IMG/VR virus record: IMGVR_UViG_3300003311_000001
Span: 1-52,328 of that record
DNA length: 52,328 nucleotides
Source: a virus
Direction: 5' to 3' (one strand)
Below, one piece after another: positions 6,957-50,326 of this stretch. The translations under genes were made by a program, and so were the position numbers. Under the pieces are notes generated by a model. It did not search any database. It saw only the letters and a list, made by a program, of their open reading frames with translations, and had not been told where the DNA came from. Every line of letters starts with the position of its first letter. The stretch's first letter is position 1.

Positions 6957-6963
6957 CGATGAT

Positions 6964-7299: not shown

Positions 7300-7301
7300 C
7301 T

Positions 7302-20919: not shown

Positions 20920-20947
20920 ACACACAACACAAACCTTTTAAATTATT

Positions 20948-31403: not shown

Positions 31404-31643
31404 CTAGTTAATACCAAAGAAGCTCCTAACTTGTGGCACATCTTTTTCAGGTATTTGGTTGTTTGCTATCCATCCGCTGATAGTTGCTTTAGCAGTATCC
31501 TGATTTATAGGATTTTCCATCCAACTTAAAAATGGAATGCCTGGGCAAACAGTACCAATGTTTTTACGATCAGTGGCATAGTTCTCGCCAGTCTCATCAT
31601 TGTACAACATTATACCGTTGAATCTGTAATCTACATGTATCAT
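31404..31643 (-). CDS. Small acidic protein, paralog family member 1
   Basis: 79 aa. It shares NGI.L.N.DT.E and N...AK.TI..WIA with 32173..32427. The leader motif AACCTTTTAGAT lies at 31645..31656. Confidence 0.55.
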   Translation of the reverse strand: MIHVDYRFNGIMLYNDETGENYATDRKNIGTVCPGIPFLSWMENPINQDTAKATISGWIANNQIPEKDVPQVRSFFGIN

Positions 31644-31810
31644 TATCTAAAAGGTTTTGTTTGAGAATTAATACAGTGCAAAACAACAGATTTGAGAGGC
31701 GGTATAAATCATCGGTTTAAATGATTTATGGCACTTGAAATATCATCGAAACTAATGATAAAAATTTTAAAATAATAGCAGTACATTTACTTAAACAGTA
31801 AATACATATT

Positions 31811-32137: not shown

Positions 32138-32172
32138 GTAATATTTATTCATAACCTTTTAAATTATTAGAA

Positions 32173-32544: not shown

Positions 32545-32576
32545 TAATTATTCAAGCACATTAAACCTTTTAGATT

Positions 32577-32972
32577 ATGTCAATAGCAAAAGTCTTACAA
32601 GCCAATTACAAGGCTAAGAAAGAAAAAAACAACGAAGAGCAATTTATACCAACCTGTGAATGGGCAACCTTCCCAGTGGTAGAAGTGCAACAGCCCACTT
32701 ACTTTATCAAAGAAGGTGCAAGGGTACTTGTTACCGATGGAGGCGAGTGGCAATGGGCAACTTGTAGCGGATTTGATAAGCACAGGAACGAGTTTTCTTT
32801 TGAACAAGAAAATACAAGTAAATACATGGGCAGGATAACGCACGCCATGATAGTACCAACAGTAGCAGACACTTTTCAACTTATCGAAGATTCAAAGGTG
32901 GACCCTACATCGCTCGAGATGGAATCACATTTTAAACAAAACCCAATCAAGACCGATGCAAGTACCAATTGA
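32577..32972 (+). CDS. Hypothetical protein
   Basis: 131-aa ORF. Confidence 0.55.
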   Translation: MSIAKVLQANYKAKKEKNNEEQFIPTCEWATFPVVEVQQPTYFIKEGARVLVTDGGEWQWATCSGFDKHRNEFSFEQENTSKYMGRITHAMIVPTVADTFQLIEDSKVDPTSLEMESHFKQNPIKTDASTN

Positions 32973-34277: not shown

Positions 34278-34293
34278 TATGTATATTTGCATA
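34278..34293 (+). promoter_or_regulatory. Perfect 16-mer promoter
   Basis: Exact TATGTATATTTGCATA. Confidence 0.65.
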
Positions 34294-34367
34294 TAAAAAA
34301 TAAACAACGTACCTTAGCATCATATTAATACAGAAACCTTTTTTTTAATTAAAACACTCACATTATT

Positions 34368-34631
34368 ATGCCTCACATTCAATTAGAAGTAAACGGAGTA
34401 AGCGAAACAGCAACCACGCCAAACGAATTGTTTGATTATATAAACACGCCACATTCTGACGTATGGATTATACTTCCAGATGGCGATCATTCAGTGGTTG
34501 ATATGATCAGCGACACAACAAACAGAAAAGAAGTTAAGCAGTTTTTTAAAGACTATGCCAATGAGGAAACGGTAGATTCTGAGTACGACCTTTACAAAAA
34601 ATATGGCATAAAGCCTAGCTATTTTTCATAG
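34368..34631 (+). CDS. Small acidic protein, probable paralog family member 3
   Basis: 87 aa. The C-terminal motif DG...N.KEVKQFFKDYA resembles DG...NQEKAKTTINEWIA in member 2. Confidence 0.55.
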   Translation: MPHIQLEVNGVSETATTPNELFDYINTPHSDVWIILPDGDHSVVDMISDTTNRKEVKQFFKDYANEETVDSEYDLYKKYGIKPSYFS

Positions 34632-34652
34632 ATAGCAGCATTATTTCAGATC

Positions 34653-34686
34653 AAGCCAAAGTCGTGAAAATGGCTTTGGCTTTTTT
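34653..34686 (+). terminator. Intrinsic terminator
   Basis: aagccaaag pairs with ctttggctt (9 bp), followed by T6. Confidence 0.7.
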
Positions 34687-34737
34687 ACATCCAACCTTTT
34701 AAATAAACACAAATTCACAACACTAAACAATATATTC

Positions 34738-34977
34738 ATGGCTAATATTAGAATTAGATTCGGCAATAAAAAATTTAATGGAATGAGGAGTTTTTTAAAC
34801 CACATTTCAAAAAAATATGAGAGGTTCATCATAACCGATGATGAGCGCGAAGCTATAAATTATTTCAGGCATCATTACAATAGTGAATGGATCAATAGGA
34901 ATACCTTCGTTGATGCCAGTGGCAGGGAAAAATTATTTTACACTCAAGAACGAAAAAGAACTGGAGGCTGGAAATAA
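34738..34977 (+). CDS. Hypothetical protein
   Basis: 79-aa ORF. Confidence 0.5.
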   Translation: MANIRIRFGNKKFNGMRSFLNHISKKYERFIITDDEREAINYFRHHYNSEWINRNTFVDASGREKLFYTQERKRTGGWK

Positions 34978-34980
34978 GTT

Positions 34981-35265
34981 ATGGCAGATTTAAATTTACT
35001 AGAAGCTGTTGAGTGGAGCGAGATGCACCTTACTAGTATAGTCTCTAAAACTGATAGGGTAGATTTTAATTACAAACAAAGCTCAGGCGAAACACATGAG
35101 CTTTGTCCGTACCAGTCTGGTAACAGGGTCTATCTTGAAAGCTTACAGCCACTACAAAAGACTGGTAAAACATTTCAATACAGCGCCGATATCAGTCATT
35201 CATTTGATTTACTAGAGCAGTGGCTTGATAACGCGATGTATGCATTTATAGCAATTATTTGTTAA
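34981..35265 (+). CDS. Hypothetical protein
   Basis: 94-aa ORF. Confidence 0.5.
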   Translation: MADLNLLEAVEWSEMHLTSIVSKTDRVDFNYKQSSGETHELCPYQSGNRVYLESLQPLQKTGKTFQYSADISHSFDLLEQWLDNAMYAFIAIIC

Positions 35266-35292
35266 TACACACAATACAAAATTCATAACGGA

Positions 35293-35901
35293 ATGGAAGC
35301 AGAATTTAATATGAATCTTAAAGGGCAATCAACCAAAGCTTATGCTGTTGATGTAACCCTCACAAACCTAAGTACATTTGAAGATTTTGAGAAAGCAAGG
35401 GAATACCTGCATTCAGCTTGGAAGGCGGTAAACGGGGAAGCTTATGGCAAAAATAATGATGTTCCAGTAGAGCCCTCAATTGACGTGCTAAAACAGTTCT
35501 ATGAAAAAAACACGCAGGCGCCTGACTGTCTAACTGTAGATAAGGTAGTAGCTAACATGGATGCCTTAAGGTCAAGAAACAATAAATTAGCACTTGACAT
35601 ACTCAATGAAATAGTGGGTATACTTAAGTATTTCAAGTTATCTAATAACCCATTATTGCCTGAGTCATTCAAGGTCATATTGCCACGATCGGCTTTTACG
35701 CAGCTTAATCGCTGTGAGCAAATAACTGTTTGCAGTGATGGTTACATATCCTACATAGGAAATAGATATTTAATATCTGAAGTTGACGGATGGACATCCA
35801 AAGGTATATCAACCCTTGTAGACGTTTACGTACATTGGTATGATGAAATATGTACCAAATCTGGGGAACACATATTGACATATCATGAGTCATCCGAATA
35901 A
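35293..35901 (+). CDS. Hypothetical protein
   Basis: 202-aa ORF preceded by TTCATAAC (35282..35289). Confidence 0.55.
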   Translation: MEAEFNMNLKGQSTKAYAVDVTLTNLSTFEDFEKAREYLHSAWKAVNGEAYGKNNDVPVEPSIDVLKQFYEKNTQAPDCLTVDKVVANMDALRSRNNKLALDILNEIVGILKYFKLSNNPLLPESFKVILPRSAFTQLNRCEQITVCSDGYISYIGNRYLISEVDGWTSKGISTLVDVYVHWYDEICTKSGEHILTYHESSE

Positions 35902-35902
35902 A

Positions 35903-36118
35903 ATGCCCCTAAGCTTTGTAAGCGAAGGCTACATACCACAAGATGCTTTTTTGGTGTTCTTGGATGATAAAACAGAAGTGGAGGTTTATTTACAAGGCAA
36001 TGGTTGGGTTAGCATTGACAATGAATGTTATAAACAGCATTCAAACATTGTTAATATCAGAGTCAAAGGGGTATTTAAGCCTAATTACAAAAAACATGGG
36101 GGTATGTATGATTTATGA
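35903..36118 (+). CDS. Small protein, tandem paralog A
   Basis: Shares QDA[FY]L.F...L..NGWV[ST]I...I.V.G with 36115..36345. An alternative start lies at 35885. Confidence 0.5.
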   Translation: MPLSFVSEGYIPQDAFLVFLDDKTEVEVYLQGNGWVSIDNECYKQHSNIVNIRVKGVFKPNYKKHGGMYDL

Positions 36119-36345
36119 GTGTTCCAATAAAAGCCTCTTACTCTTACTTCCATGCTGGCAACAACAAACAGGATGCTTACCTAGAATTTGTAAGTGGGTA
36201 TCAGATGCGTATAGGTTTACATTATAATGGCTGGGTAACTATATCGGGAGGTGATTTTATGCAAGATCATATGACCAAAAGCATTAGAGTTGGTGGTATT
36301 TATGATAGTAATCTTTCGTATGTGAAAAGCATTTGGTTTTTATAA
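36115..36345 (+). CDS. Small protein, tandem paralog B
   Basis: ATGA overlap with paralog A. Confidence 0.5.
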   Translation: MSVPIKASYSYFHAGNNKQDAYLEFVSGYQMRIGLHYNGWVTISGGDFMQDHMTKSIRVGGIYDSNLSYVKSIWFL

Positions 36346-36406
36346 AATGTGCAAAATACCTATATTAGTAGTCCGTAGTATTATTACCTTTGAGTTTCGC
36401 AACGTG

Positions 36407-36434
36407 ACCTGTACATTTATTTGTACAGGTTTTT
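36407..36434 (+). terminator. Intrinsic terminator abutting the next promoter
   Basis: acctgtaca pairs with tgtacaggt (9 bp), followed by T5. Confidence 0.6.
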
Positions 36435-36435
36435 G

Positions 36436-36443
36436 TATATTTG
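36436..36443 (+). promoter_or_regulatory. -7 box TATATTTG, 4 nt upstream of the gpJ-like start codon
   Basis: tgtatatttggcatATGgca; ATG at 36448. Confidence 0.5.
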
Positions 36444-36447
36444 GCAT

Positions 36448-38157
36448 ATGGCAACACAACAAGATCAGTCACAATATTTTAAGATAACTGTAGATCAGCT
36501 GGAGGCTGAAATAAAACAGCAGGCAAAGTTCTTGTTGCCTGAGATTACCAACCAAACCGACGATGTGTTAATACGGGGGTATCAGGTACACCTTAATATC
36601 CTAGAACGCATGATACTTTGGATAAACCTGCTGGCTCGTGAATCGCAACCTGCAACGGCACTATTGTTTCGATCACAAATAGCAAGTGCACAAAGCTTTG
36701 ATTATAGAGTGCAAGGCGCAAAGCCAGAGCGTGTAGAGGTTACGTTTACCTTTGACATAAATCATACATCTGATTTTTTAATACCTGCGGGAACGTTGGT
36801 AAGCGATGAGGATAACACAAGCGTGTTTAGAACTGTGCAGGATGCTACCATAGCACAAAACACAGCTTTTGTAAAGGTGTTGGCAGAGCAAAAAGAAATC
36901 GTGCAACCAATAGCCCCTATTGCCCAAACCACAGGTGATAAATTTCAAGTAGTGCCAGTAACTTTAAACGATGAGGGATTCTTTATAGTAGATAATAGTA
37001 TACTTGCTACTATTGCTGGCAACACTTATGTGCCAATAGATAGCTTTTTCTTTGCCGAGGAAGATAGTTTAGTATTTATACAGCGAATTAATCAGTTTGG
37101 ATTAACTGAAATTTTACTAGGCGATGGCATCAACGGAGTTTTGCCAGCATCAGGAGTAGATATAAACGTATCTTACTTTAAGACTCAAGGTACGTCTGGC
37201 AGGGTAGCCGCTGGGCAAATAGATACCATCATAAGCACCTTGCCCCCACCAGTGGGTATAACACTAACCGTAACCAATGAACTAGAATCTGCTGACGGCG
37301 CACAACCTCAAACTACTGAAGATTTACGGAGAATATTACCAAGGTTACGCAATACAAACGAGCGCGGGGTTACGTTGCAAGATTTCAAAGACCTTGCTGA
37401 ATCATTCCCGCAAGTGGCAAAAGCTGCAGTAGTAGAAACGCCATCGGTGCAAAATACAGATGTGAATGTCTACTTTATACCCACAAGCGGCGACTTGCCA
37501 AGCGCACAGCTTATATCTGATCTCAATGATTATATGCAACTTAGGAAAATAATTGGCATAAACTTGGGTGTTTTAGCTGCGGGACGTATTGACGTACTGC
37601 TTGAGTTTGATCTAATAGTTGATAGTGGCTTCAATCAAACGGAGGTTGTAAACAATGTGGTAAACTCTCTTGAGCTAATCACAGACATAAACAATCAGGA
37701 TAGCCCAGTGGAGATTGGCGGGGAACTTGGCAGTGATGACATAATAGACGCGCCACGCGATGTCGCAGGGGTGAAAAGGTTTATACTCAAGGTATTTAGT
37801 CTCAGACCGTTTGCCCGACCACTAACAGGCAAGACTCTAAACTGGGATGTGGAAATGCTTTCGGGGTCCACAACTCAAAGTAGATTTTTGATCATATTCC
37901 AGACAACCAATAATTTTGATGTCATTCAAAATGAATTGGCGGTGGCAACCAATCAAAATGTGGGTGACGTCGTGAATATAAATGGCGTAGTTGAGTTTGT
38001 TATAAACTCCCCTTACGTTGCACAGGACGTTTGGGAGTTCTACACCTACCCTTACTTAGGAGATCGCAATGGGGTATACTCCCTAGCAGAGCCTAGTTTT
38101 TTCAACATAAGCCAAGACAATATGAATATAAATGCATCTGGCGGGATAACAGCGTAG
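36448..38157 (+). CDS. Baseplate J-like protein
   Basis: Baseplate_J-like core DGAQPQTTEDLRRIL...GVTLQDFKDLAESFPQVAKAAVVE...VNVYFIP. Confidence 0.7.
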   Translation: MATQQDQSQYFKITVDQLEAEIKQQAKFLLPEITNQTDDVLIRGYQVHLNILERMILWINLLARESQPATALLFRSQIASAQSFDYRVQGAKPERVEVTFTFDINHTSDFLIPAGTLVSDEDNTSVFRTVQDATIAQNTAFVKVLAEQKEIVQPIAPIAQTTGDKFQVVPVTLNDEGFFIVDNSILATIAGNTYVPIDSFFFAEEDSLVFIQRINQFGLTEILLGDGINGVLPASGVDINVSYFKTQGTSGRVAAGQIDTIISTLPPPVGITLTVTNELESADGAQPQTTEDLRRILPRLRNTNERGVTLQDFKDLAESFPQVAKAAVVETPSVQNTDVNVYFIPTSGDLPSAQLISDLNDYMQLRKIIGINLGVLAAGRIDVLLEFDLIVDSGFNQTEVVNNVVNSLELITDINNQDSPVEIGGELGSDDIIDAPRDVAGVKRFILKVFSLRPFARPLTGKTLNWDVEMLSGSTTQSRFLIIFQTTNNFDVIQNELAVATNQNVGDVVNINGVVEFVINSPYVAQDVWEFYTYPYLGDRNGVYSLAEPSFFNISQDNMNINASGGITA

Positions 38158-38187
38158 CACACATACACAATTACCAATAACTTAAAA

Positions 38188-38217
38188 GGGTAGCTTATTT
38201 TGGGCTACCCTTTTTTT
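38188..38217 (+). terminator. Intrinsic terminator
   Basis: gggtagc pairs with gctaccc, followed by T7. Confidence 0.7.
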
Positions 38218-38232
38218 GTTATTAATTATTTA

Positions 38233-38248
38233 TATGTATATTTGCATA
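38233..38248 (+). promoter_or_regulatory. Perfect 16-mer promoter
   Basis: Exact TATGTATATTTGCATA. The -33 TTTG (38215..38218) is supplied by the terminator T-run. Confidence 0.65.
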
Positions 38249-38276
38249 ACACTAATTTTACATTGATCTAAATATT

Positions 38277-39122
38277 ATGATTCCTACATTAAAAGATTAC
38301 GACCTTATAATTTTAAACAGTAGCGGTGGTAAAGATTCACTTGCTGCAAAGTATGAAGTTGCTAGAATAGCTAAAGATCAGGGCTACCCATTAGAAAAAA
38401 TTATCGTATCACATCAATGCCTTGGCGAATCCGAGTGGAAGGGCACAAAAGAATTGGCAAAAAAACAAGCCGATTTGTTTGGGTTTGGTTTCATAGTGAG
38501 TAAAAGGAGAGACAAGGACGGGAAAGAAGAAACTCTACTTGAATATGCTGAAAGGCGTGGTAAGTTTCCTAGTTCAAAACAAAGATGGTGTACAAGCGAC
38601 TTCAAACGAGCACCAGGGGGCAGGGTTGTAACCAAACTTACCAAGGAAATGACAGGTCATATACACATATTGTATGTGTTTGGATTTAGAGCAAGTGAAA
38701 GCCCTGCCAGATCAAAAAAAGAAGTATTTTCTTTGAATACCAATTTATCAATCACCAAACGTAGGTTGCCAAAGGCAGGACACAAGCCCAGAAAATTGAA
38801 GAAAGAAAGGTATGTATGGGATTGGCTTCCGATACATGCTTGGGATGACCAAAAAGTTTGGGATACCATACATAATAATAATTTACCATACCATAAAGCG
38901 TATGATCTGGGTATGCCTAGGCTATCTTGCGTATTTTGCATATTTGCCCCAAAAAATGCATTATTATTGGCAGCTATACATAACCCCGAGCTTTATGAAA
39001 AGTATGTGGCTGTGGAGAAAAAAATAAAACACAAATTCAAACCTGATCTTAGCCTTGAATCTTTGAAGGATGATATTAAATCAGGATGCACACCCAATTC
39101 AATATCAAGCTGGAAAATGTAA
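38277..39122 (+). CDS. PAPS reductase / PP-loop ATP-pyrophosphatase family protein (DndC/SspD-like fold)
   Basis: PP-loop NSSGGKDS, then GFRASESPARS, then WDWLPIHAWDDQKVW...LPYHKAYDLGMPRLSCVFC. Confidence 0.75.
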   Translation: MIPTLKDYDLIILNSSGGKDSLAAKYEVARIAKDQGYPLEKIIVSHQCLGESEWKGTKELAKKQADLFGFGFIVSKRRDKDGKEETLLEYAERRGKFPSSKQRWCTSDFKRAPGGRVVTKLTKEMTGHIHILYVFGFRASESPARSKKEVFSLNTNLSITKRRLPKAGHKPRKLKKERYVWDWLPIHAWDDQKVWDTIHNNNLPYHKAYDLGMPRLSCVFCIFAPKNALLLAAIHNPELYEKYVAVEKKIKHKFKPDLSLESLKDDIKSGCTPNSISSWKM

Positions 39123-39161
39123 ACACCTAAAATAAATATTCATAACTATACCTTTTAAATT

Positions 39162-39398
39162 ATGTTGAACGAATTAAAAAACATACTTGAGAAAATACAA
39201 GGCAACCAATTGAGCCTAATTGCCACAAAAGGCAACCCACAGGCTACCGACAAATTGATAACTGACAACAGGAAACTTTGGGCAGAATACAATTCTAAGT
39301 TTGCCAAGTGCTTCAATGTAACACCTACTGATGTTTCTAATATACCTATCTCAGACCTACAACGTAGATTGACCAATATTAAGAACATCAGCAAATAA
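39162..39398 (+). CDS. Hypothetical 78-aa protein
   Basis: ORF in the same cassette. Confidence 0.5.
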   Translation: MLNELKNILEKIQGNQLSLIATKGNPQATDKLITDNRKLWAEYNSKFAKCFNVTPTDVSNIPISDLQRRLTNIKNISK

Positions 39399-39410
39399 AC
39401 CTTTTAGATT

Positions 39411-40352
39411 ATGACTCAAGAAAAAAGAAAGCTCCTAGTTATTGAAAATGATATGACTATGGATTTTGAAAACAGGCACGAAGCCGTTGGTAACTTCATT
39501 GAAAAATGGAAAGCCCAGCACGAAACAACTAAGGATAATATTACCTATCTTACCAATGCCAAGCACGCGAGCGAAACGGACATAGTTGGCAAGATTATGA
39601 ACACGGATGATATTGCACTGCAAACTGCCTTTGTGAATGGTAGCGAATTACAGCTCATACAGTTCGCTATGGTTCTCGCTGGTATCAATGCTACAAAAAA
39701 CATTTATATATTTTATGGCGATGGCATTGGCAGTAAAATAGTTGAACATCTTTCTGACGAGGACATTTATAATGTAAAGCATCATAAAATTTACAAGCTT
39801 GGTTATTTTGGAGATGTTGAAAAAATTGATTTTGGTGGAATTATAAAAGGCTATGAGGTCAAACTTAAAGCCATCCAAAAGCAAAAGAAGTGGGAAAAGC
39901 AATATAAAGCTGATGCCGTAAACCGTCAGACAGGCACGCAAGTAAAGGTACTTACTTGCACTGCTGGCTTTGATGTACCAATAGGTCAGGTGGTAGATGT
40001 ATTAGATATGTTGGATATGGACAACGAGCCACACCTAGGCGTATGGATTGCAGGTAAAGAAGAACCTGTAAAGCTAGTAAACCTAAGGGGTATACATGAG
40101 TATGAGGTAGTACCGAAAACTTTTGATTTTGAAGAACTGGTAACGTGTGTTTTTGGTGTTTTTGGCTTGAATGGCGAGCACATGAAGTACAAATATTATC
40201 AGGTAATTGATCTTTTGGAAAACCGAAACAAAAACCCTAACGTAGATACCGATATATGTGACGTGCTCGAGTTCCCACGCAGGGGGTATAGGCATAAGCT
40301 TACCAATGTATTATACAATTTTGACCAAAATAGAGGAAAGGCAAACACGTAA
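39411..40352 (+). CDS. Hypothetical 313-aa protein (no family recognised)
   Basis: ORF in the same cassette, followed by a terminator. Confidence 0.55.
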   Translation: MTQEKRKLLVIENDMTMDFENRHEAVGNFIEKWKAQHETTKDNITYLTNAKHASETDIVGKIMNTDDIALQTAFVNGSELQLIQFAMVLAGINATKNIYIFYGDGIGSKIVEHLSDEDIYNVKHHKIYKLGYFGDVEKIDFGGIIKGYEVKLKAIQKQKKWEKQYKADAVNRQTGTQVKVLTCTAGFDVPIGQVVDVLDMLDMDNEPHLGVWIAGKEEPVKLVNLRGIHEYEVVPKTFDFEELVTCVFGVFGLNGEHMKYKYYQVIDLLENRNKNPNVDTDICDVLEFPRRGYRHKLTNVLYNFDQNRGKANT

Positions 40353-40390
40353 TCTTTTTTTATTCATAATAATTTAGTTTAAGTGTAAAA

Positions 40391-40421
40391 GGCTGGTGAA
40401 TTTTTCACTGGTCTTTTTTTT
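40391..40421 (+). terminator. Intrinsic terminator
   Basis: ggctggtgaa pairs with ttcactggtc (10 bp, including G-U pairs), followed by T8. Confidence 0.6.
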
Positions 40422-40446
40422 GCACAAAACTTAAACTGAGTATTGC

Positions 40447-40454
40447 TATATTTG
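40447..40454 (+). promoter_or_regulatory. -7 box TATATTTG, 3 nt upstream of the gpI-like start codon
   Basis: gctatatttgcatATGgca; ATG at 40458. Confidence 0.5.
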
Positions 40455-40457
40455 CAT

Positions 40458-42407
40458 ATGGCAAAATCTTATTTAGACCTTGGGTACTTGTTTAGCTTGC
40501 TTGGCTCCTACTTCGTAGAGAACGACGGGCTAAAAAACTTTGATCCTGAAAACCTAGACAGGGGAACAATGGAACGTTACCTAACTGTATTAGATGAACA
40601 GCTTTCGCAAAAGTTTTTCCCAAAGTTGATTGATGCCCCATTTGCATTAAGAGGTGGCATCAATGCAGATGAGAATATGGTAGGTATTATAGAACAAAGT
40701 TGGGGCATACAAACCCCACTCTATGATGACACCGAAATACGCAAAAAGATGTCAGGCTACCTACTTACCATATCGCAATGGAAAGGAACAAAGAAAGCCT
40801 TATGCTTCATGTTGTCGCAATTAGGCTTTCAAGGCTGTGAGGAACAAGAAACGTACTTCAGCGGTGGATTTGACTCCATACCATTTGATAGCCCATCCTT
40901 TGATGGTGTAGAAGGTTTTTTTGCCCAGTACGACATAGCCTTGACATCATCGCCACCAGTGGTAATAACTCCTGATGTATTTAATCAAATATTCAGAATA
41001 ATTACATTTAATCAACCCGCATTCGTGCAACTGGTAAGGCTTACGCATAACGGGGTACTCATATTTAATGCACTGGGCGATGTTGAGACTATATTTAAAA
41101 CAGTTAAATCGGGTACCCAAGTAGTACGCATAACATCAAATATAGAGCAAACTATACTGATTGATTACAAGGATACGGATACCCAAGAGACGCAAACAGG
41201 GCTATTGTTTGAATTTACCAATACGTACCCAGACAATACCGAGAAACAATTTGACATAGTGTTCGCCAATGAAACCATTATTACAGCACTTGACTTTAGT
41301 CAATCAGAGCTATCAGATAACTTTGATATTGCCAAGTTCCTTATATTAGAGTCATTCAAAGCAACCTACAATAAGAACCTACTAAATATTACTCTTGATC
41401 AACTGGTTATCTTTGACCTAGATTTAACTATACTAAGTACTGGAAATGTATTAAACGTTACTAGTTGCCCCCAACTAGAACAAGCTGTATTAGTTGCCAA
41501 TGATGCAAATGTAACCATCAGCAATAATCAGAATATGAAAAAGGTAGATGTTTCGGGTGTTGGCACGCTATCTGTCGATACATTGGCTGCAAATAGTACT
41601 GAATTGGAGTTTATAATTAGGACTTATTCAATAAATGGTTTCGCATTTTTCGACGGTGTAACGATTTTGAATACAACTATTTTAAGATTATTAAACATAA
41701 CCTTTACAGGCGCTACAATAGACCTTACTAGCTTCACGAATGCGGGACTTATAGAGGTTCGGTTAGATGACCCATCACAAAAAGCTTTCATCGCCAATAC
41801 CTCAAACCTTAAAGAGTTCATAGGTATAAACACTGGTGCAGAAAGTGCCTATACCCTTGACATTGCCAGCATTGAAAAACTGACCCTAAGTAAGCAAACA
41901 ACACCAGCATCAATTGTCTCGTTTACCGTGCTTACCGATATTACATTTATAGGCGAGAAAAGTATAAATATAGATTCCTGCCCATTGCTAGAATCTATTA
42001 CGGCAGAAGGTGCAAATATAGGTAGCGTGGTAGGTGACGCAATATCACTCAATAATTTGCCAAACCTTAATGCATTATATTTACAAGCAAATGTGTTAGG
42101 TGATTTTAACCCTGGCAACAATGCGGGTGTTATAATACCAGTGCTTTCTAATTTTAAAAACCTGATAGCCGTAGACCTAAGAAAATGTAACTTGTCAGAG
42201 GCAAACATTGATTTGATAATATCTGATATACTCAATGCAGAACAAACGGCAGGGGATGAGTTTTTAAATGATACTGGCAAATCGCTAGATGTATCCAACA
42301 ACACAACTTTAAGCGCTGGGCTAAACAACGCAATGCCAACGCCTGCAACGATTATTAAAATAGATACTTTAGAAAGTTCATACGGGTGGACAATTAATTA
42401 TAGCTAA
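40458..42407 (+). CDS. Baseplate wedge gpI-like N-terminal domain fused to a long leucine-rich-repeat-like region
   Basis: The N-terminus resembles P2 tail protein I (ERYL..LDEQ...QWKGTKKAL.FMLSQLGF). The C-terminal ~400 aa has repeated L..L.L/N-type units. Confidence 0.5.
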   Translation: MAKSYLDLGYLFSLLGSYFVENDGLKNFDPENLDRGTMERYLTVLDEQLSQKFFPKLIDAPFALRGGINADENMVGIIEQSWGIQTPLYDDTEIRKKMSGYLLTISQWKGTKKALCFMLSQLGFQGCEEQETYFSGGFDSIPFDSPSFDGVEGFFAQYDIALTSSPPVVITPDVFNQIFRIITFNQPAFVQLVRLTHNGVLIFNALGDVETIFKTVKSGTQVVRITSNIEQTILIDYKDTDTQETQTGLLFEFTNTYPDNTEKQFDIVFANETIITALDFSQSELSDNFDIAKFLILESFKATYNKNLLNITLDQLVIFDLDLTILSTGNVLNVTSCPQLEQAVLVANDANVTISNNQNMKKVDVSGVGTLSVDTLAANSTELEFIIRTYSINGFAFFDGVTILNTTILRLLNITFTGATIDLTSFTNAGLIEVRLDDPSQKAFIANTSNLKEFIGINTGAESAYTLDIASIEKLTLSKQTTPASIVSFTVLTDITFIGEKSINIDSCPLLESITAEGANIGSVVGDAISLNNLPNLNALYLQANVLGDFNPGNNAGVIIPVLSNFKNLIAVDLRKCNLSEANIDLIISDILNAEQTAGDEFLNDTGKSLDVSNNTTLSAGLNNAMPTPATIIKIDTLESSYGWTINYS

Positions 42408-43894
42408 TGACTGATTTTAGACGCGTATACCATACATTTGAATCAACTGGTACCATTCAACTTAATCAGAGGCAAACGTATCTGGATGAGGGTGTATATG
42501 CTGGGTATGATTTTCCAGTAGTGCCGCCATCCGATTTGTTTCTAAAGTTAGAAATGGGAAACGGTTTTAAGTTTGTCGACGATACAGCTCCGATAAATCA
42601 AGAAATAGTACATGGCTTGGCTATCACCAAGCAAAGAATGTACATTGCCGAAACAGATGCCTCAATGCCAACCATTGAGATACAGCCAACCAATGCCACG
42701 CCACGCATTGATGCAATCATTCTGCAACATAGTAGAATACTTGTGTTTGGCGGTAATGCCCCAATTTACAAAACAGTCGACACACTAGGCATAACCGATC
42801 CTGATGCCATACGCGCGACACTTGGTACGGACGAGGTTTTATTAGGCATACTGGAGTTGCCAATAAACTGTACTGGCTTAGATCAGGTAGGGGTTAACTA
42901 CACAAAAGTTCAAGCCAAAAACTTCAAACGCAACGCAACCCTAAACAAAAGTATCACAGCTTTTGACGATGAGCAAACGGATGGCATAATTTATAGTGAC
43001 TCCTACCCTGCCCTCAATGCCCCACCTTTTTCGGCTGGGCAAACAAACCCTGTTTTGCTTGAGGTCTTTGCCGTAGATGGTAAGTTTTTCACTCAACGTG
43101 CTACTGATGCCATAAACTCAAATGAGGTATTTACAAGATATTATAATGGCACATCTTGGGGGGCTTGGCAAAAAGTAACTGTAGACATTGTAAATGATCT
43201 CGTGACAAATGATCCCACCAAAGCGTTGGGCGCTGACCAAGGCGTAGTTATACTTGGGCTTATTACTGCCTTGGACGGCAGGGTAACAGCAAATGAGGGC
43301 AATATAACTATCCTACAAAATGACAAGGCAAACAAGTCTGATATTGTAAACAATCTGACTACTAATGACCCTACTAAAATACTGGGCGCTGATCAGGGCG
43401 TGGTTATACAAGCTTTGATCAATGCTTTGGACGGTAGGGTAACTGTAAACGAAGGCGATATACTAGATATATTCCAAGATATATTAGACATTGAAAATGA
43501 TATATCCAATATTGAAACTGGTGCCACAAAAGGTATATTAAACTTAAGTGGCGCAAGCATTACTTCAGAATACAATACAGGAAGGACTACACCAAACGGT
43601 AGCGATGTGATTTACATGACAGGAGTTGTTCAAAATTTGCCTAATACATCCGTTGTGCAAAATGTTTTGCTTGCGACAAATGTTAAGAATGTACTCTATG
43701 GCTTAGGAAGTTTTCCGTTTTTTGGTGGTGGGGCTGGTGATAGTAGTAGGGCGTGGACAATCAACGATGCCCTATACTCAAATTACAATGCAACATACAG
43801 CGCAAATGCCTTGAATGAACTTAGATTTGTAGGAAATAACACAGGAAGTTTTTCGGCAGATTTTGCAGGCATAGTATTTTACACGAAAAATTAA
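42407..43894 (+). CDS. Tail fibre protein
   Basis: Follows the baseplate genes and contains a 52-aa tandem fibre repeat (TNDPTK.LGADQGVVI..LI.ALDGRVT.NEG). Confidence 0.6.
   Translation: MTDFRRVYHTFESTGTIQLNQRQTYLDEGVYAGYDFPVVPPSDLFLKLEMGNGFKFVDDTAPINQEIVHGLAITKQRMYIAETDASMPTIEIQPTNATPRIDAIILQHSRILVFGGNAPIYKTVDTLGITDPDAIRATLGTDEVLLGILELPINCTGLDQVGVNYTKVQAKNFKRNATLNKSITAFDDEQTDGIIYSDSYPALNAPPFSAGQTNPVLLEVFAVDGKFFTQRATDAINSNEVFTRYYNGTSWGAWQKVTVDIVNDLVTNDPTKALGADQGVVILGLITALDGRVTANEGNITILQNDKANKSDIVNNLTTNDPTKILGADQGVVIQALINALDGRVTVNEGDILDIFQDILDIENDISNIETGATKGILNLSGASITSEYNTGRTTPNGSDVIYMTGVVQNLPNTSVVQNVLLATNVKNVLYGLGSFPFFGGGAGDSSRAWTINDALYSNYNATYSANALNELRFVGNNTGSFSADFAGIVFYTKN
43184..43465 (+). 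repeat. In-frame 156-nt tandem duplication within the tail fibre gene
   Basis: DIVNDLVTNDPTKALGADQG... is repeated as DIVNNLTTNDPTKILGADQG.... Confidence 0.8.
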
Positions 43895-43899
43895 GATAG

Positions 43900-45342
43900 A
43901 TGGCAATAATAAAATCAATATACTCTGGTAACAGATTTTGTGGCGTAGATACGCAAAAGCCCGCTTTTCAAAATGTGGATGAGCTTGCCGAGTATTATAA
44001 ACTTGATGATGCTGCAAAAAAAGCATTCAAGTCACAGCATTTTGCTTTTAATGCTGGCGATGAGGATAGATATTTTTATAGAGAAGGGCGGGCACTGAGC
44101 CAAGTCATAGTTGCAAAAGAAACTTACAGGGCAACGGATTTCAGAAGAAAGGGAGTGCTGAAAGCGAGTACGCAAATGCTCAACAACCGACCTTTGCAGC
44201 TAGACCACAGCGTAAGCGTAAAGAATAACCGAGGTAGGGTACTTATGCCAAAGTACAAAAAGGCATTTGAATCAAATGGCATTACGGTGCCAGCGGGCAT
44301 AAATGGCATACTAAGAATTAATAAGGTGCTTTACCCCGAACTTGTAGAGCAGCTATCGGGAGACTTGCCAGACTTACAAAGCCTCAGCGTGGGTATTATG
44401 TTTGAAGCTGAACGTAGCCACCCAAATTTACTTGACAAATATGGAGATGAAATAAGTGACTGGGTATACAGTTACTATTGGGTTGGTAAGTATGTAGATG
44501 GCAAGATGGTAACTTGGGAGGTTACCAATATCCTTTTCTATGACGAATTAAGCATAGTTTACGATGGTGCCGACGATACTAGCCAAATCTTGGACATTGA
44601 TGGCGTACCCTACGATATGGAAATGGTTACCAGTGATATTTTCACTCAGGCACGCGAAGAGGGTACGCTTGGAGAATTTACAGAAATGTATAACAAAAAT
44701 AATAAGTATATTGCAAGCCATAGTAATACTTTTCAAGTAATTAAACCAAAAGAACCAAGTATGGATTTAACATTGAAGTCTGGTGCAGGCGAATTTATAA
44801 TCGTTACTGGTGGCGAGGTTAATAAGGAAGTCTTTAAAAAACTAGAGGCACACCTCAAAGAAACCGAAGAAAAAGCCAGTCTTGCCGACGATTACAAGGC
44901 TAAACTTGATGCCAGCAACGAACAGGCAAAAGCCAATGAGTCTATCAAGAGTGAGTTTGAAAAGCTTAAGGAAGAACACCAAACCCTTAAGGTTGAAAAC
45001 GAAAGGTTGATCTCTGAGGCTAACAAAGAAATTGAGAGCAAAAGAGATGCGGTAAAAAAAGCTTACCACGCAACTCTAAAAGAAGAAGATACGCCAAATG
45101 AGGCTTACCTAAGTCTTATATCAAAAGCAAACAACGAAGAACTAAACGCCTTTGCGCAAACATTTAATGTGAAGTTTGGATCAGAACTACCACAGGCTGT
45201 TTGCAATAATTGCGGTAGTTCTGACCATATTACTTATTCATCACACGACAAGGGTGGCGATGGTGATGAAACAAGCCTCAATCAAAGTAAGAGCCACCAA
45301 ACGGCACTGGATGACCTAGAACGCAAGATTGCACTAGGTTAG
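43900..45342 (+). CDS. Prohead protease (S78/HK97-like) fused to a coiled-coil scaffold region
   Basis: RPLQLDHS...LQSLSVGIMFE, followed by a long Lys/Glu-rich coiled coil. Confidence 0.5.
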   Translation: MAIIKSIYSGNRFCGVDTQKPAFQNVDELAEYYKLDDAAKKAFKSQHFAFNAGDEDRYFYREGRALSQVIVAKETYRATDFRRKGVLKASTQMLNNRPLQLDHSVSVKNNRGRVLMPKYKKAFESNGITVPAGINGILRINKVLYPELVEQLSGDLPDLQSLSVGIMFEAERSHPNLLDKYGDEISDWVYSYYWVGKYVDGKMVTWEVTNILFYDELSIVYDGADDTSQILDIDGVPYDMEMVTSDIFTQAREEGTLGEFTEMYNKNNKYIASHSNTFQVIKPKEPSMDLTLKSGAGEFIIVTGGEVNKEVFKKLEAHLKETEEKASLADDYKAKLDASNEQAKANESIKSEFEKLKEEHQTLKVENERLISEANKEIESKRDAVKKAYHATLKEEDTPNEAYLSLISKANNEELNAFAQTFNVKFGSELPQAVCNNCGSSDHITYSSHDKGGDGDETSLNQSKSHQTALDDLERKIALG

Positions 45343-45388
45343 GAAGCAGCCAAGTAAAACAATTAAAAAACTCTAAAAGATTATTTAA

Positions 45389-45901
45389 ATGAGCGATTTC
45401 GGTGCACCAAACTTTGATGTTAAGCGTTACAAGCCGTTTAGAATGGACAACACCAATGTTGTAACGCGTTCTTATGTCCTTAGAAAAGCCGCTGCCGATC
45501 CAGTAGGTACTAGGTATTACCCAACCCAACAGCTAGTACTAACTGGCGTAGACAATGAGGTTAGACCACGTAAATCAACTGATGGGGCTGTTATCCCATT
45601 TGGCGAGATATACACCAAGGCAAAGCCAAAGCCTAGCGATGTAGATCAAGGCGCTGTTGATGGCGATGAGGTATCGGTAAAGGTTTATCATGTAGATGAG
45701 ATCAACGCAATTACAGCGGGTGGTGCTGCAATCACAGCGGGTACTCTTGTGAAGCAGACTGATACAACACCAGTAGAGCCTAACTACCTGACTGAAGTAG
45801 AAACCGCAGTTTCTGGCGATTGGTCAAGTCTCCAAGTAGTTAAGGGTTCCACCAACCCTGTGTTACTCGCAAGGTTGGCAACACCTGTACAAGTGCCCTA
45901 G
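45389..45901 (+). CDS. Head decoration / accessory capsid protein candidate
   Basis: 170 aa, located between the protease-scaffold and capsid genes. Call based on position only. Confidence 0.35.
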   Translation: MSDFGAPNFDVKRYKPFRMDNTNVVTRSYVLRKAAADPVGTRYYPTQQLVLTGVDNEVRPRKSTDGAVIPFGEIYTKAKPKPSDVDQGAVDGDEVSVKVYHVDEINAITAGGAAITAGTLVKQTDTTPVEPNYLTEVETAVSGDWSSLQVVKGSTNPVLLARLATPVQVP

Positions 45902-45957
45902 TAGCGCCAACCAAGATTGATTTTAAAATAATTAAGAACTTTATACTATCTAAATAG

Positions 45958-47361
45958 ATGAAATTTACATTTCAAAAATTAAGTAAGTACTATAAAAAAC
46001 AACTTGACGAGTCCGTTGAATCTGTTTCAAAAGCGGATATCAAGAAGTTTGTACTTGAGTCTTTTAGCTTTGATCCAGCAAAAATAGACGAAAAAAACGG
46101 AGCACATGCCAAAGGAATGTCCTTCATTCAATTTTTGATGGATGCCAGAAACCCAAGCACCGAAAAAGACGGTGTTAAAGTTGGAGGGCACAAGCTGTCT
46201 TTAAAAGATGCGATTTTCATGTATTACGGAGTTGAATCCGTAGAAGAATTTTTCATGGATGTTTTTAGCATCAACTTCAAGCGTCACACGTTCGGTAGCT
46301 TATACCGTAAATTTGCAGGCAATCAGGCTGGTAAATTTACGGTACCTCAGCTAAAAGACATGTTGATTGACTATACAAAGTATCATTTCTCAGCTTTTGC
46401 CGTAGACAAAAAGCTTTTTAGCGCCACCGTTGGCGACTACGCGCCAGTCTTTAATTTCCTTATACCAGAAGTGTATTTGGAGATCATTCGGGCAGATAGC
46501 GATTACATGCCCAAATGGAGCATGTGGACGGGAGGCAGTAGCTTCCCAGCTCAAAACCGTACCAATACTTTTGTTCCATACACTCGTGAAGGGTTAGACG
46601 GATGGGCAGAACGTGGCGAGGCAGAAGATATTCGCATTGGGTCAGAAGTGTTTTTTGATCAGAAAAGAATTGAACTGAGGGAGTTCGCCACTGGTGCTAG
46701 AATTACCGATGAACTATTGGAGCAAAGCACAATTGATCAATTGGGTGAGCACTTTAGAAACATCAACCGAGGCAAAGATAAAAAAATGGACGCCTTGGCA
46801 ATCACCGCAATTGTAAATGGCGAAACCGCATACGACAAGAAAAATCAACTTATTGACCAGTCTATGCCAACCATTGGCGTGGAGAATCCTGCAATAGGCT
46901 GGCAGATGGTAGATATACAGAGAGTTGTTCAGTTGATGACAGCTTTTGGTCTAAGACCAAACATTATGATTACGCGTGTAAAAGATCAGGTAAAGATTTC
47001 TGCTATTCCTGAATATCGCGGATACAACGGGGAAACACGCACGCTAAACATTGAAAATTTAGCGGGTAGAATAGTGGACCTCGAAAACACCCAGCACTTG
47101 CCACCAGCTGATACTATCATATTACTTGATAGTAATGAAGCACTCAGCATTAGTGAATTGGGTGACATGGTGGTGGAGGAAGAACGTAATTCGCGCAACA
47201 AAACAAATGAAATATTTTTCAGCTTTGTAGCGGAGTTTTTCAAGCGTAAACGAATTGCAGCAGTTGGGATTAATGCAACCGTGAGTTATCCAAGTCTACC
47301 ATTTCCTGATTATATGGATTATGACAGATTCGTTGACCAGTCATTTTTCGATGAAAACTAG
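45958..47361 (+). CDS. Major capsid protein
   Basis: 467 aa, with the position and size expected of a capsid gene, followed by a stable hairpin. Confidence 0.6.
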   Translation: MKFTFQKLSKYYKKQLDESVESVSKADIKKFVLESFSFDPAKIDEKNGAHAKGMSFIQFLMDARNPSTEKDGVKVGGHKLSLKDAIFMYYGVESVEEFFMDVFSINFKRHTFGSLYRKFAGNQAGKFTVPQLKDMLIDYTKYHFSAFAVDKKLFSATVGDYAPVFNFLIPEVYLEIIRADSDYMPKWSMWTGGSSFPAQNRTNTFVPYTREGLDGWAERGEAEDIRIGSEVFFDQKRIELREFATGARITDELLEQSTIDQLGEHFRNINRGKDKKMDALAITAIVNGETAYDKKNQLIDQSMPTIGVENPAIGWQMVDIQRVVQLMTAFGLRPNIMITRVKDQVKISAIPEYRGYNGETRTLNIENLAGRIVDLENTQHLPPADTIILLDSNEALSISELGDMVVEEERNSRNKTNEIFFSFVAEFFKRKRIAAVGINATVSYPSLPFPDYMDYDRFVDQSFFDEN

Positions 47362-49163: not shown

Positions 49164-49639
49164 TAAAAGTTGAAACCGTAGGAAACATAAGTAATCTTGC
49201 TATTGACATTAAAAGGGAAATAGTAAAGCACCAATACAAAGAGCTAAACGAAATAACCCAGAAGGGCGAGCAACTTATAAAAAAACGAATCAACTCCCAG
49301 TCATTTGGTTTTACTCCACTAGATCAAACATACTTACAAAACAAAGTCAGCCTTGGACATAGCTCAAAAATGTTCGTGGCAACTGGTACCTACCTAAAAT
49401 CAATTCTAAGTACAGTGCTTAGTCATAAGCAAGGTTTTATATTTATTGACCCACAAGCAAAGTCAAAGTATGGTACAAGCTATACCCTGATAGCAACCGT
49501 ACTTGAGTATGGCTCCACAAAAGTAAACATACCCGCACGTCCATTATGGCGCTCATCAATGGAGCTAATTAAAAAGGATGTAAGGCGGAACTATTTTGGA
49601 TTACATAAGCTAAAAAATAGGTTAGAAAATATGTATTAA
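49160..49639 (+). CDS. HK97 gp10-like tail-completion / neck protein
   Basis: TKVNIPARPLWRSS resembles the gp10-family ARPF motif. Confidence 0.45.
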   Translation: MIKVETVGNISNLAIDIKREIVKHQYKELNEITQKGEQLIKKRINSQSFGFTPLDQTYLQNKVSLGHSSKMFVATGTYLKSILSTVLSHKQGFIFIDPQAKSKYGTSYTLIATVLEYGSTKVNIPARPLWRSSMELIKKDVRRNYFGLHKLKNRLENMY

Positions 49640-49648
49640 ATTTGGAGT

Positions 49649-50326
49649 ATGGAGTTTATTGCACAAACCGCATTCCCAAACCTTAATATCAGTTCCATTG
49701 CTTGGGGCATCTATGAAGCCATTAGGCTCGAGCTGATTGCCAAAGGCTTATACCCCGACGTTGCTGGCAAAACCTCAGCACAGGTAGACGCTGAGGTTGA
49801 GTTGATAAGGCAAAGCGGCATTATTCCTATAAAGGTAGTGCCAATGGTGCCTGTAAAAGAGCAAGGTGATACAGACAATGGCACCATATTCATTACCCTT
49901 GCCGCCATTGAAAAGGGTACCATTGGCGGCAAAAGCAGAGATTACGAAGATACAGGGTCTAATTTCAATAGAAGGTCCTACCCAGATGCTACTAGGAATA
50001 TTATATTTTTAATAACCCTGCAAGCTGAAAACGTAATCGCCCTTGACTCAATGATTGAGGTTATGTCTGATGCACTGGGCTACCAAGAGATTACCCAAAT
50101 AAGCAGCTATGATTTTGCAAACTCGCAAACAACTGACATAGATTTTGAGATTGAACACATGGACGATATTGTCCTGACTATAGCAGATCAACACGAAGTA
50201 AAAATGACCTATAAGGTAAGAGACGTGTATTTGCAAAAAATAAAGGAAAAAGATATTGCCAAAATAACAAGCGTAAGAGGGTTTATTGATGAGGAATCAA
50301 CTGATCCTGACATTGTTTCACCATAA
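49649..50326 (+). CDS. Tail terminator / sheath-stabiliser candidate
   Basis: Lies immediately upstream of the sheath gene. Confidence 0.4.
   Translation: MEFIAQTAFPNLNISSIAWGIYEAIRLELIAKGLYPDVAGKTSAQVDAEVELIRQSGIIPIKVVPMVPVKEQGDTDNGTIFITLAAIEKGTIGGKSRDYEDTGSNFNRRSYPDATRNIIFLITLQAENVIALDSMIEVMSDALGYQEITQISSYDFANSQTTDIDFEIEHMDDIVLTIADQHEVKMTYKVRDVYLQKIKEKDIAKITSVRGFIDEESTDPDIVSP

Follow-up and report, generated by a model that had tools for sequence, protein, structure and literature searches.

A putative moron-like accessory operon headed by a stand-alone PAPS-reductase-like gene downstream of baseplate J in a phage from a coral metagenome

Phages and prophages frequently carry stand-alone PAPS-reductase-like genes, which rank among their commonest accessory genes without an explanation. 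The escape from Dnd by a PAPS-Dam fusion of a phage is the only experimentally supported role of a phage PAPS domain (10.1101/2021.05.05.442762). PAPS reductases have also been located in variable regions and in anti-defence operons under Aca regulation (PMC13551039). The functions of PAPS-reductase homologues may reach past sulfur metabolism (PMC11437467). As a precedent for anti-Dnd activity the fusion is weakened by its Dam part and by the co-transfer of an adjacent unknown gene.

The window, i.e., the whole stretch of DNA that was analysed, comprises 52,328 nucleotides (IMG/VR record IMGVR_UViG_3300003311_000001). The phage is a Bacteroidota-infecting tailed phage and originates from a coral metagenome. 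An earlier note on this DNA had described a three-gene cassette downstream of a baseplate J gene. The three open reading frames were found, and the same genes are called in both public assemblies of the phage. The cassette is flanked by a Baseplate_J gene on the 5' side and a gene for a 649-aa tail protein on the 3' side. The locus has the following features:

36407-36431, plus strand: hairpin with T-run from the terminator scan, ending a unit of small ORFs directly 5' of the J promoter/start
36448-38157, plus strand: baseplate J-like gene, 569 aa from the ATG at 36448 (Pfam Baseplate_J, 1.8e-14; phrog_219 baseplate wedge, 1.3e-22)
38184-38214, plus strand: intrinsic terminator of the J unit, 14 bp stem and T-run (-19.9 kcal/mol, z = -4.9)
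38215-38248, plus strand: cassette promoter of the Bacteroidota sigma-A type by sequence match, TTTG-N18-TATATTTGCATA
38277-39122, plus strand: PAPS-reductase-like gene, 281 aa (ORF call), with NSSGGKDS as residues 14-21
39162-39398, plus strand: ORF78 gene, 78 aa (ORF call)
39411-40352, plus strand: ORF313 gene, 313 aa (ORF call)
40391-40420, plus strand: terminator at the cassette end, hairpin near 40391-40412 plus T8 (-16.9 kcal/mol, z = -4.5)
40447-40460, plus strand: -7 box TATATTTG of the 649-aa gene, running directly into the ATG; leaderless type, designed as in J
40458-42407, plus strand: gene of the tail/baseplate region, 649 aa, upstream of the tail fibre; the next gene codes for a Phage_fiber_rpt protein (Pfam)

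The boundaries of the unit are established at the sequence level. Strong hairpins with T-runs lie on both sides of the cassette, in agreement with the terminators that had been marked at 38188 and 40391; the hairpin at the cassette end was missed by a simple terminator scan and became apparent by its folding energy. Promoter box, three genes and terminator would form a self-bounded transcription unit downstream of J, as had been proposed. The genes are co-directional with spacers of 39 nt and 12 nt, and no hairpin is present inside the unit. For the perfect consensus promoter that the earlier note had placed at 38233, the presence of a promoter stood, but not the type: it belongs to Bacteroidota sigma-A, and a sigma-70 promoter was rejected for lack of a match in the promoter scan. 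The -33/-7 consensus of Bacteroidota sigma-A, with a -7 box spanning -12 to -5, has been described (PMC9723704). In the general form TTTG-N18-TAtaTTTG, the cassette promoter has TTTG at 38215-38218, N18 and TATATTTG at 38237-44; the TTTG of the -33 element is made up of the T-run of the J terminator plus a G. The box is the phage's own 12-mer, TATATTTGCATA, extended to a 16-mer by a shared upstream ATG. Exactly six copies of the 12-mer occur in 52 kb, each intergenic and 5' of a gene, thus short insulated units appear to be the normal layout for this phage and the cassette may be one of several short promoter-to-terminator units of the genome. A block of six small ORFs with its own promoter directly upstream of J is a second such unit. 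The start context of the cassette, ACCTTTTARATTATG, is again the phage's own, and the start codon of ORF78 lies within the conserved ACCTTTTAAATTATG context of the phage. Unlike the cassette promoter, the arrangement of J and the 649-aa gene is of the leaderless type: J is preceded by TATATTTGGCATATG, the box predicts a transcription start at the ATG itself, and the promoter/start design of the two genes is nearly identical, TATATTTG(G)CATATGGCA. The late-region placement assumed in the earlier note was not upheld. A position among tail genes is no proof of late expression, and the promoter class of the cassette is the one in front of non-structural units, e.g., at 22485 after the helicase. 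An Rfam scan revealed no Rfam families. As far as can be read from the sequence, the window clearly presents phage promoters of the Bacteroidota type, structural genes of the leaderless type and a start-codon context that is conserved.

Gene structure, family, fold and conserved residues of the PAPS-like protein are established. Its membership in the PP-loop/PAPS-reductase family, already recognised from the SGGKDS motif, was confirmed by Pfam PAPS_reduct (PF01507; 48.2 bits, gathering cut-off 22.5), by phrog_424 (1.8e-31, residues 8-257) and by the adenine-nucleotide alpha-hydrolase fold: the AF2 model (pLDDT 92.5) had its top Foldseek matches in the PAPS/APS reductases 2oq2, 2goy and 1sur (E = 6e-8 to 6e-7, TM 0.5-0.6). 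The PP-loop SGGKDS (S16-S21) is invariant in 46 homologues and agrees with the SGGxDS motif after beta-1 of PP-loop ATP pyrophosphatases; across 46-120 homologues, the PP-loop from N14 to S21 and the cysteines C105, C218 and C221 are invariant. C218 and C221 align with the CxxC 228/231 of 2goy, the APS reductase chain of P. aeruginosa, in whose published structure these two cysteines ligate the [4Fe-4S] cluster. The fold matches also include NcsA, a [4Fe-4S] thiolase. The three cysteines suggest Fe-S binding, and the conserved residues point to an ATP-dependent, probably Fe-S enzyme. A basic loop of 16 aa (KRRLPKAGHKPRKLKK), at about residues 162-177, is unique to this protein.

Homologues of the PAPS-like protein (2,485) mostly reside, as solitary genes, in Bacteroidota phages and prophages, with the closest, hundreds of proteins, at about 60% identity. 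Annotated PAPS-reductase genes of Streptomyces phage Gilgamesh, of the Pseudomonas phages Dolphis and Jeremy and of a Klebsiella phage are 36-37% identical. Neighbours linked to DNA modification recur beside these relatives, often DNA methyltransferases: a Helicase_C-N6_N4_Mtase is located directly upstream in an Elizabethkingia prophage, methyltransferases flank the gene on both sides in Dolphis, and a DpdA-type TGT is found near the gene in Gilgamesh. A methyltransferase was the sole recurring neighbour across eight examined loci. Among the proteins of the window phage that were scanned, no methyltransferase, desulfurase, DndD/E or SspB/C partner was recognisable, and the cassette lacks the usual partners of the enzyme family, a desulfurase and a ParB-like protein, as had been observed earlier.

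We read the region as a moron-like accessory operon of three unrelated, independently travelling cargo genes, the first of which codes for a stand-alone PP-loop enzyme likely to act in anti-defence or DNA modification; the probability of this reading is roughly 0.5. The SGGKDS loop would bind ATP and adenylate a substrate oxygen, while C105, C218 and C221 would ligate a [4Fe-4S] cluster in the manner of APS reductase, DndC and the thiolases TtuA/NcsA. The role of this cluster would be to handle sulfur or another nucleophile or to deliver it. The likeliest target would be the phage DNA or the DNA-sulfur-modification pathway of the host, and the outcome a protection from Dnd/Ssp/BREX-4-type or restriction defences, comparable to the PAPS-Dam fusion of one Vibrio phage. 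ORF313 would be an independent accessory protein. We infer the adenylation chemistry, the DNA or anti-defence role and any role of ORF313 and ORF78; the best guess for the enzyme is a function in anti-defence or DNA modification. Such a cargo type had been suggested before, and it accords with the literature, which treats phage PAPS reductases of variable regions as candidates and holds one experimental anti-Dnd case.

The cassette may be a classical moron that was recently inserted by horizontal transfer into a once-contiguous junction of J and I, a possible but rather doubtful history. Its own promoter and terminator, the position between two tail genes and the near-identical promoter/start design of J and the downstream gene are in favour, and Thermus phage Tsatsa, set against IN93, has a similar insert with a PAPS reductase. 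Of the moron features after Hendrix/Juhala, own promoter and terminator are present at the level of sequence motifs, but the composition is not deviant: GC content (0.36-0.38) and codon usage of the cassette match the genome mean (0.388 +/- 0.026). Promoter box and start context are the phage's own, and direct or inverted repeats as a transposon or integration signature do not flank the cassette. The matches listed above confirmed the upstream gene as baseplate J. The assignment of the downstream gene to baseplate I turned out to be unsupported, since the 649-aa protein had no Pfam, PHROG or phage tblastn match and its similarity to P2 gpI in BLASTP was non-significant (E = 0.18-6.5), with collinear segments including a 'KGT...LG' motif. 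Neither an HMM match to Tail_P2_I/gpI nor a significant sequence match was obtained; a gpI-like N-terminus is possible on the basis of these segments. The P2/Mu-type gene order presumed in the earlier note is not that of this phage: baseplate V and portal are encoded about 30 kb off on the other strand, and structural genes are scattered across the genome. Relatives for comparison were missing from the collections searched, as the region 36000-43000 had no DNA match in 50,697 phage records, and IMG/VR scans with J and with the 649-aa protein gave no relatives. An insertion between J and I is thus not demonstrable, given the average composition, the phage-own motifs, the lack of flanking repeats and the lack of an insert-free relative.

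RNA or a small molecule, instead of DNA, is an unlikely target of the PP-loop enzyme; such an activity, e.g., tRNA thiolation, other adenylation-dependent base modification or nucleotide/cofactor chemistry, would serve a takeover of translation or an interference with nucleotide signalling. Fold matches of the model include the tRNA thiolase NcsA as well as TilS, FAD synthase, NAD synthetase and Cap9, and the pattern of three cysteines resembles TtuA/NcsA; the wider functions considered for PAPS-reductase homologues would also agree with this reading. However, the (P)APS reductases give stronger fold matches than these, DNA methyltransferases or DpdA rather than tRNA genes recur as neighbours, and a tRNA scan of the phage found no tRNA gene.

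The 313-aa protein, called unassignable in the earlier note, belongs to a phage-only, uncharacterised family of 74 representatives or clusters that was revealed by an exhaustive HMMER scan. Its closest relative has 42% identity. A word-indexed protein search with ORF313 returned the protein itself only, and the family profile retrieved nine proteins there; tblastn against phages gave no match, the family is represented in IMG/VR by one partial locus, and it was not detected in 185,579 species genomes. The uncharacterised phrog_28825 was weakly matched by 35 of 39 aligned family members, with ORF313 of the window itself below the threshold. Searches of Pfam, NCBIfam, PADLOC and PDB sequences with ORF78 and ORF313 gave no match; the best match of the PDB profile search, KsgA (E = 0.4), was rejected as noise. 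In the AF2 model of ORF313 (pLDDT 93), three domains are confidently modelled, arranged as a flavodoxin-like N-domain, a long helix, a small beta-barrel and a helical C-terminal domain. The latter is HTH-like and has R291/R294 invariant in the family alignment. ORF313 is probably a nucleic-acid-binding protein, and this domain carries an invariant KRGNR-type motif. Foldseek of the model against PDB and BFVD gave nothing at or below 1e-3, and weak fold matches (azoreductase, NDT/TIR/SLOG-like flavodoxin-like proteins, a DUF4314-like barrel) were discarded as too generic for a function. Genes of the family occur within arrays of small accessory genes. A conserved neighbour was not found; two or three loci coincided in ParB-HTH, HAD_SAK_2 or PolyA_pol. 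With a three-domain model and generic fold matches at most, it would be reasonable to include the family in anti-defence screens. ORF78 has no detectable relatives, and a permissive phmmer search found no ORF78-like proteins 5' of ORF313 homologues; it would be a small protein restricted to its lineage.

The lack of co-occurrence of the three genes, whose joint presence in related phages had been put forward as a check, is established. Tblastn and HMM searches detected a PAPS-like or ORF78-like gene at none of about 40 loci of the ORF313 family, including the closest relative with a flank of +/-8 kb, although many of these loci are short contigs on which a distant genomic linkage is possible. 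Vice versa, ORF313 or ORF78 was present at none of the eight PAPS-like loci, six of them examined by tblastn/HMM and two prophages by gene size and Pfam only. By these comparisons the trio is a mosaic accessory operon and not a conserved system, because the ORF313 family was never near a PAPS-like gene and ORF78 has no relatives. One new functional system, in which the enzyme modifies DNA, ORF78 acts as adaptor and ORF313 with its alpha/beta domain, barrel and HTH-like domain targets DNA in place of DndD/E, SspB/C or IbrB, is very unlikely. The tight packing under one promoter and one terminator, the invariant arginines of the HTH-like domain and the ParB-type proteins encoded no more than a few kb from some of the ORF313 homologues would suit such a system, but its members do not travel together and the ORF313 family is without any conserved neighbour. 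Equally slight is the chance that the trio presents a lineage-specific DNA-modification/anti-defence module with ORF313 as DNA-recognition subunit, or that the ORF313 family alone presents a new counter-defence/nucleic-acid-binding class.

An auxiliary metabolic gene, i.e., a genuine (P)APS reductase for raising the assimilatory sulfate reduction of the host during infection, is suggested by the Pfam/PHROG names, the top structural matches and the PHROG category 'moron, auxiliary metabolic gene and host takeover', but this CysH reading is highly improbable and was rejected on a missing motif and failed cut-offs: the NCBIfam models for CysH/APS/PAPS reductases gave 23-25 bits against cut-offs of 154-254 (TIGR00434, 25 vs 165; TIGR02055, 24 vs 235; TIGR02057, 23 vs 254; NF002537, 23 vs 154), the catalytic cysteine motif ECG[LI]H is absent, C271 is not conserved among homologues, and a canonical SGGKDS ATP-PPase loop is present. 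The loop of CysH is reportedly degenerate, with ATP not used, a finding attributed to Savage et al. in 1997.

Under the preferred reading of a moron-like accessory operon, the cassette is phage cargo of an ordinary kind rather than a new system of three genes. The locus opens no long-standing question; it adds a Bacteroidota, coral-associated example of a predicted ATP-dependent, probably Fe-S enzyme that, judged by motifs and model scores, stands cleanly apart from CysH and from DndC/SspD/BrxP. With the latter group the PAPS-like protein shares the superfamily, the SGGKDS PP-loop and cysteines compatible with a [4Fe-4S] cluster. The relation by fold to DndC and SspD pointed out in the earlier note holds as a distant one within the same superfamily, but not at the family level. 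The HMM matches to BrxP (2.2e-13), SspD (2.6e-8) and DndC (5e-7 to 7e-7; PADLOC DndC 6.7e-7) are partial and limited to about residues 98-252. The DndC equivalog TIGR03183 scored 29 bits against 290.4, positions 212-345 of 779 were covered in the BrxP model, and SspD was matched in short stretches. DndC and BrxP are about twice as large as the protein, and the cassette has tail genes and two unknowns as neighbours in place of DndA/D/E, SspB/C, DUF4007 or PglZ/BrxL. CysH (2oq2, 1sur, 2goy) provides the best structural matches, and the C-terminal CxxC is aligned to the Fe-S ligands of APS reductase; the protein differs by the lack of the ECGLH motif and by the canonical ATP-binding PP-loop. In layout, the cassette resembles the IbrA/IbrB pairs of prophages, likewise a PAPS-reductase-like gene in a mobile-element operon with uncharacterised partners, but searches of Pfam, NCBIfam and PADLOC gave no ParB/ParBc signature for ORF78 or for ORF313. 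The p0018 protein of Vibrio phage P5a_red (Piel et al.) is alike in its PAPS-reductase domain and in the variable type of locus. It differs in the host phylum, in the fusion to a Dam methylase and in the transfer with a neighbouring unknown gene, whereas the cassette contains no methyltransferase domain or neighbour. In comparison with the stand-alone phage proteins of PHROG 424/PF01507, the gene is located beside baseplate genes and not in an early/replication region, it is apparently co-transcribed with two genes not seen beside other members, and the basic loop of 16 aa is peculiar to it. With these proteins it has in common the full-length phrog_424 match and the character of a solitary accessory gene.

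The window of about 52.3 kb is an essentially complete phage genome, present as circular permutations in two independent ENA assemblies (one, from a coral metagenome, as a contig of 52,376 bp, the other as a 52,304-bp scaffold); no close relative was found among phage, IMG/VR or species-genome collections. A host among the Bacteroidota is indicated by the promoter motifs and by the nearest homologues of the PAPS-reductase-like protein, whose sources are Elizabethkingia, Chryseobacterium, Pedobacter and Pustulibacterium. The positions of the following genes show that structural genes are dispersed and the P2/Mu order is not kept.

1962-4769, tape measure
4781-6391 (-), portal
7554-8267 (-), baseplate spike, V-like
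16802-17833, replication initiator
20948-22477, DnaB-like helicase
29937-31403, large terminase
36448-38157, Baseplate_J
42407-43894, tail-fibre repeat protein
43900-45342, head protease
45958-47361, major head protein

Structural genes were thus distributed over 1962-8267 and 36448-47361 and over both strands: tape measure, portal and spike are located about 30 kb away from J, fibre, protease and capsid. The tail fibre gene is directly followed by the head protease gene.

Between J and the next long gene, encoding 649 amino acids (40458-42407), the earlier note had described three ORFs, the first with an SGGKDS motif, and these were found as claimed.

38277-39122, PAPS-reductase-like protein
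39162-39398, ORF78
39411-40352, ORF313

The gap from the J stop codon at 38157 to the ATG at 40458 is 2.3 kb. The proposed terminators were recovered behind J (38184-38214, a strong 14-bp stem, -19.9 kcal/mol, z = -4.9) and behind the cassette (a hairpin with T8 at about 40391-40420, -16.9 kcal/mol, z = -4.5), and no hairpin was present in the internal spacers of 39 and 12 nt. The consensus promoter announced at 38233 was not of the sigma-70 type, but TTTG-N18-TATATTTG has the -33/-7 design of Bacteroidota sigma-A. The window contains exactly six copies of the 12-mer TATATTTGCATA, at 810(-), 22485, 32533, 34282, 38237 and 40447, each in an intergenic position upstream of a gene; five of the six share tATGTATATTTGCATA, and TTTG precedes four of the five tATG-type copies by 18-19 nt. 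Judged from its sequence and placement, TATATTTGCATA is a putative phage-wide promoter box of the Bacteroidota sigma-A type defining many short transcription units, and the cassette is a predicted bounded unit like many others in the window. Another such promoter-to-terminator unit is located immediately upstream of J, as the same kind of interruption.

34282-36431, promoter, six small ORFs (34368-36345; 87, 79, 94, 202, 77 and 76 aa) and hairpin (36407-36431) just before J

The one ORF of this unit that was checked had no family match. The -7 box of Bacteroidota sigma-A spans -12 to -5 (PMC9723704). A terminator hairpin is followed immediately by TATATTTG(G)CATATGGCA at the start of both J (36436-36450) and the 649-aa gene (40447-40460), so that transcription is predicted to start on or beside the ATG and the mRNAs of these two structural genes are predicted to be leaderless. 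Similar arrangements were seen at 49637-49651 and 10211-10198 (-). A second motif, ACCTTTTARATTATG, forms the start context of ORF78, ORF313, the helicase gene and several other phage genes, with eight matches where 0.7 were expected when up to two mismatches are allowed. Its role may lie in translation initiation or in regulation, in an organism that lacks Shine-Dalgarno sequences.

ACCTTTTARATTATG sites:
39150-39164
39399-39413
32565-32579
31641-31655 (-)
20933-20947
32154-32168

An insertion of the cassette between J and I, as had been proposed, was not demonstrable. Composition and codon usage equalled the genome mean, repeats flanking the cassette were absent, and its regulatory motifs were the phage's own. 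The collections searched offered no relative with which the junction could be compared. Similarity of the downstream gene to gpI was not significant; the segments it shares with P2 gpI, 'KGT..A.....LG' among them, are nevertheless collinear, which would fit that assignment.

The assignment of the 281-aa protein to the PAPS-reductase/PP-loop family held (Pfam PAPS_reduct, 48 bits, cut-off 22.5; full-length match to phrog_424, 1.8e-31). The family presented 2,485 matches at <=1e-10, and in the contexts examined the gene was solitary.

L006 and L007, among small early genes
L008, in a Mu-like phage
L046 4327-7789, Elizabethkingia prophage, directly after a helicase-methyltransferase gene
L047 4774-7789, Pedobacter prophage, shortly downstream of the portal gene
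L002 466-5946, Pseudomonas phage Dolphis, flanked by methyltransferases
L001 3851-6623, Streptomyces phage Gilgamesh, two genes from a DpdA-type TGT

The recurrent neighbours are DNA-modification enzymes, and the Pedobacter homologue shows that a placement by structural genes is not unique. The AF2 model (pLDDT 92.5) matched best the PAPS reductases of yeast and E. coli and the APS reductase of P. aeruginosa (Foldseek, 6e-8 to 6e-7), followed by other PP-loop enzymes, e.g., the [4Fe-4S] tRNA thiolase NcsA; RNA or a small molecule is a rival target to DNA. Among 46-120 homologues the PP-loop N14-S21 and the cysteines C105, C218 and C221 were invariant. C218 and C221 align with the CxxC residues 228/231 of APS reductase chain 2goy, which in the published structure are ligands of its Fe-S cluster. 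A true CysH acting as auxiliary metabolic gene would agree with the best structural matches, but the ECGLH motif is absent and all curated CysH-type models, like those of DndC, stayed about ten-fold under their cut-offs. The SspD and BrxP models were matched over some of their length only, and the protein belongs to none of CysH, DndC, SspD and BrxP. A basic loop of 16 residues at about 162-177 (KRRLPKAGHKPRKLKK; window 38757-38810) sets this copy apart, being absent from all of the approximately 120 close homologues; modelled at lower confidence, it may provide an extra nucleic-acid contact.

A word-indexed search with ORF313 returned only itself, while HMMER, run exhaustively over 1.84 billion cluster representatives, yielded 74 relatives, 47 at <=1e-10, as full-length proteins of 290-330 aa. 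E12, H125, G210, W212, G215, E230, R291 and R294 were invariant in the alignment. The AF2 model (pLDDT 93) has four parts.

1-138, flavodoxin-like alpha/beta domain
142-171, long helix
173-234, small beta-barrel
240-312, helical C-terminal domain

Neither PDB nor BFVD held a structure match at <=1e-3, and Pfam gave no match; most family members weakly matched phrog_28825 (function unknown). The family was not found in 185,579 species genomes and was seen only on phage-like metagenomic contigs, within arrays of small accessory and nucleic-acid-metabolism genes. NUDIX, PTH2, YAcAr, UvdE and PolyA_pol genes surround the closest relative, which is 42% identical. Three contigs with family members (L010, L012 and L049, one of 259 kb) carry a PolyA_pol gene (CCA-adding-type) within about 3-8 kb, two of the three a HAD_SAK_2 gene just upstream, and L010 also RNA ligase and PNKP; they would seem to be large phages equipped with sets of RNA-repair genes. 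On a 14.4-kb metagenomic contig (L014, 1-12831), a gene set of about 7.7 kb including the ORF313-family gene occurs twice, which may reflect a concatemer or the assembly of a small circular element. ORF78 had no relatives in any collection searched and is backed as a gene solely by its start context and consistent gene calls in assemblies.

That the three genes form a single system, as their shared transcription unit could suggest, did not hold in the co-occurrence check proposed in the earlier note: tblastn and the family HMM revealed no PAPS-like gene in about 40 ORF313-family loci. Many of these loci are short, yet in at least 14 the flanking sequence on the side in question extends over 3-5 kb or more, and around the closest homologue it reaches 8 kb in both directions. 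Relatives of ORF313 or ORF78 were likewise absent from six PAPS-like loci (tblastn) and from the prophage loci L046 and L047 (gene size and Pfam), and the ORF313 family had no conserved neighbour. The genes are therefore seen as independent cargo sharing one transcription unit here. The observation of the earlier note is confirmed, its interpretation partly supported.

We give an about even chance (roughly 0.5) to a mosaic accessory operon whose PP-loop enzyme would adenylate in an ATP-dependent reaction, would carry a three-cysteine [4Fe-4S] site and would act on DNA or on a DNA-sulfur-modification pathway of the host, shielding the phage from modification-dependent immunity. This mechanism is drawn from the chemistry of the superfamily, the methyltransferase and DpdA neighbourhoods, and the sole experimental precedent, a PAPS-Dam fusion conferring escape from Dnd (10.1101/2021.05.05.442762), together with recent surveys (PMC13551039, PMC11437467). 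The locus joins the phage PAPS-reductase-like accessory genes, alongside one member of an uncharacterised phage family (ORF313) and one orphan (ORF78).
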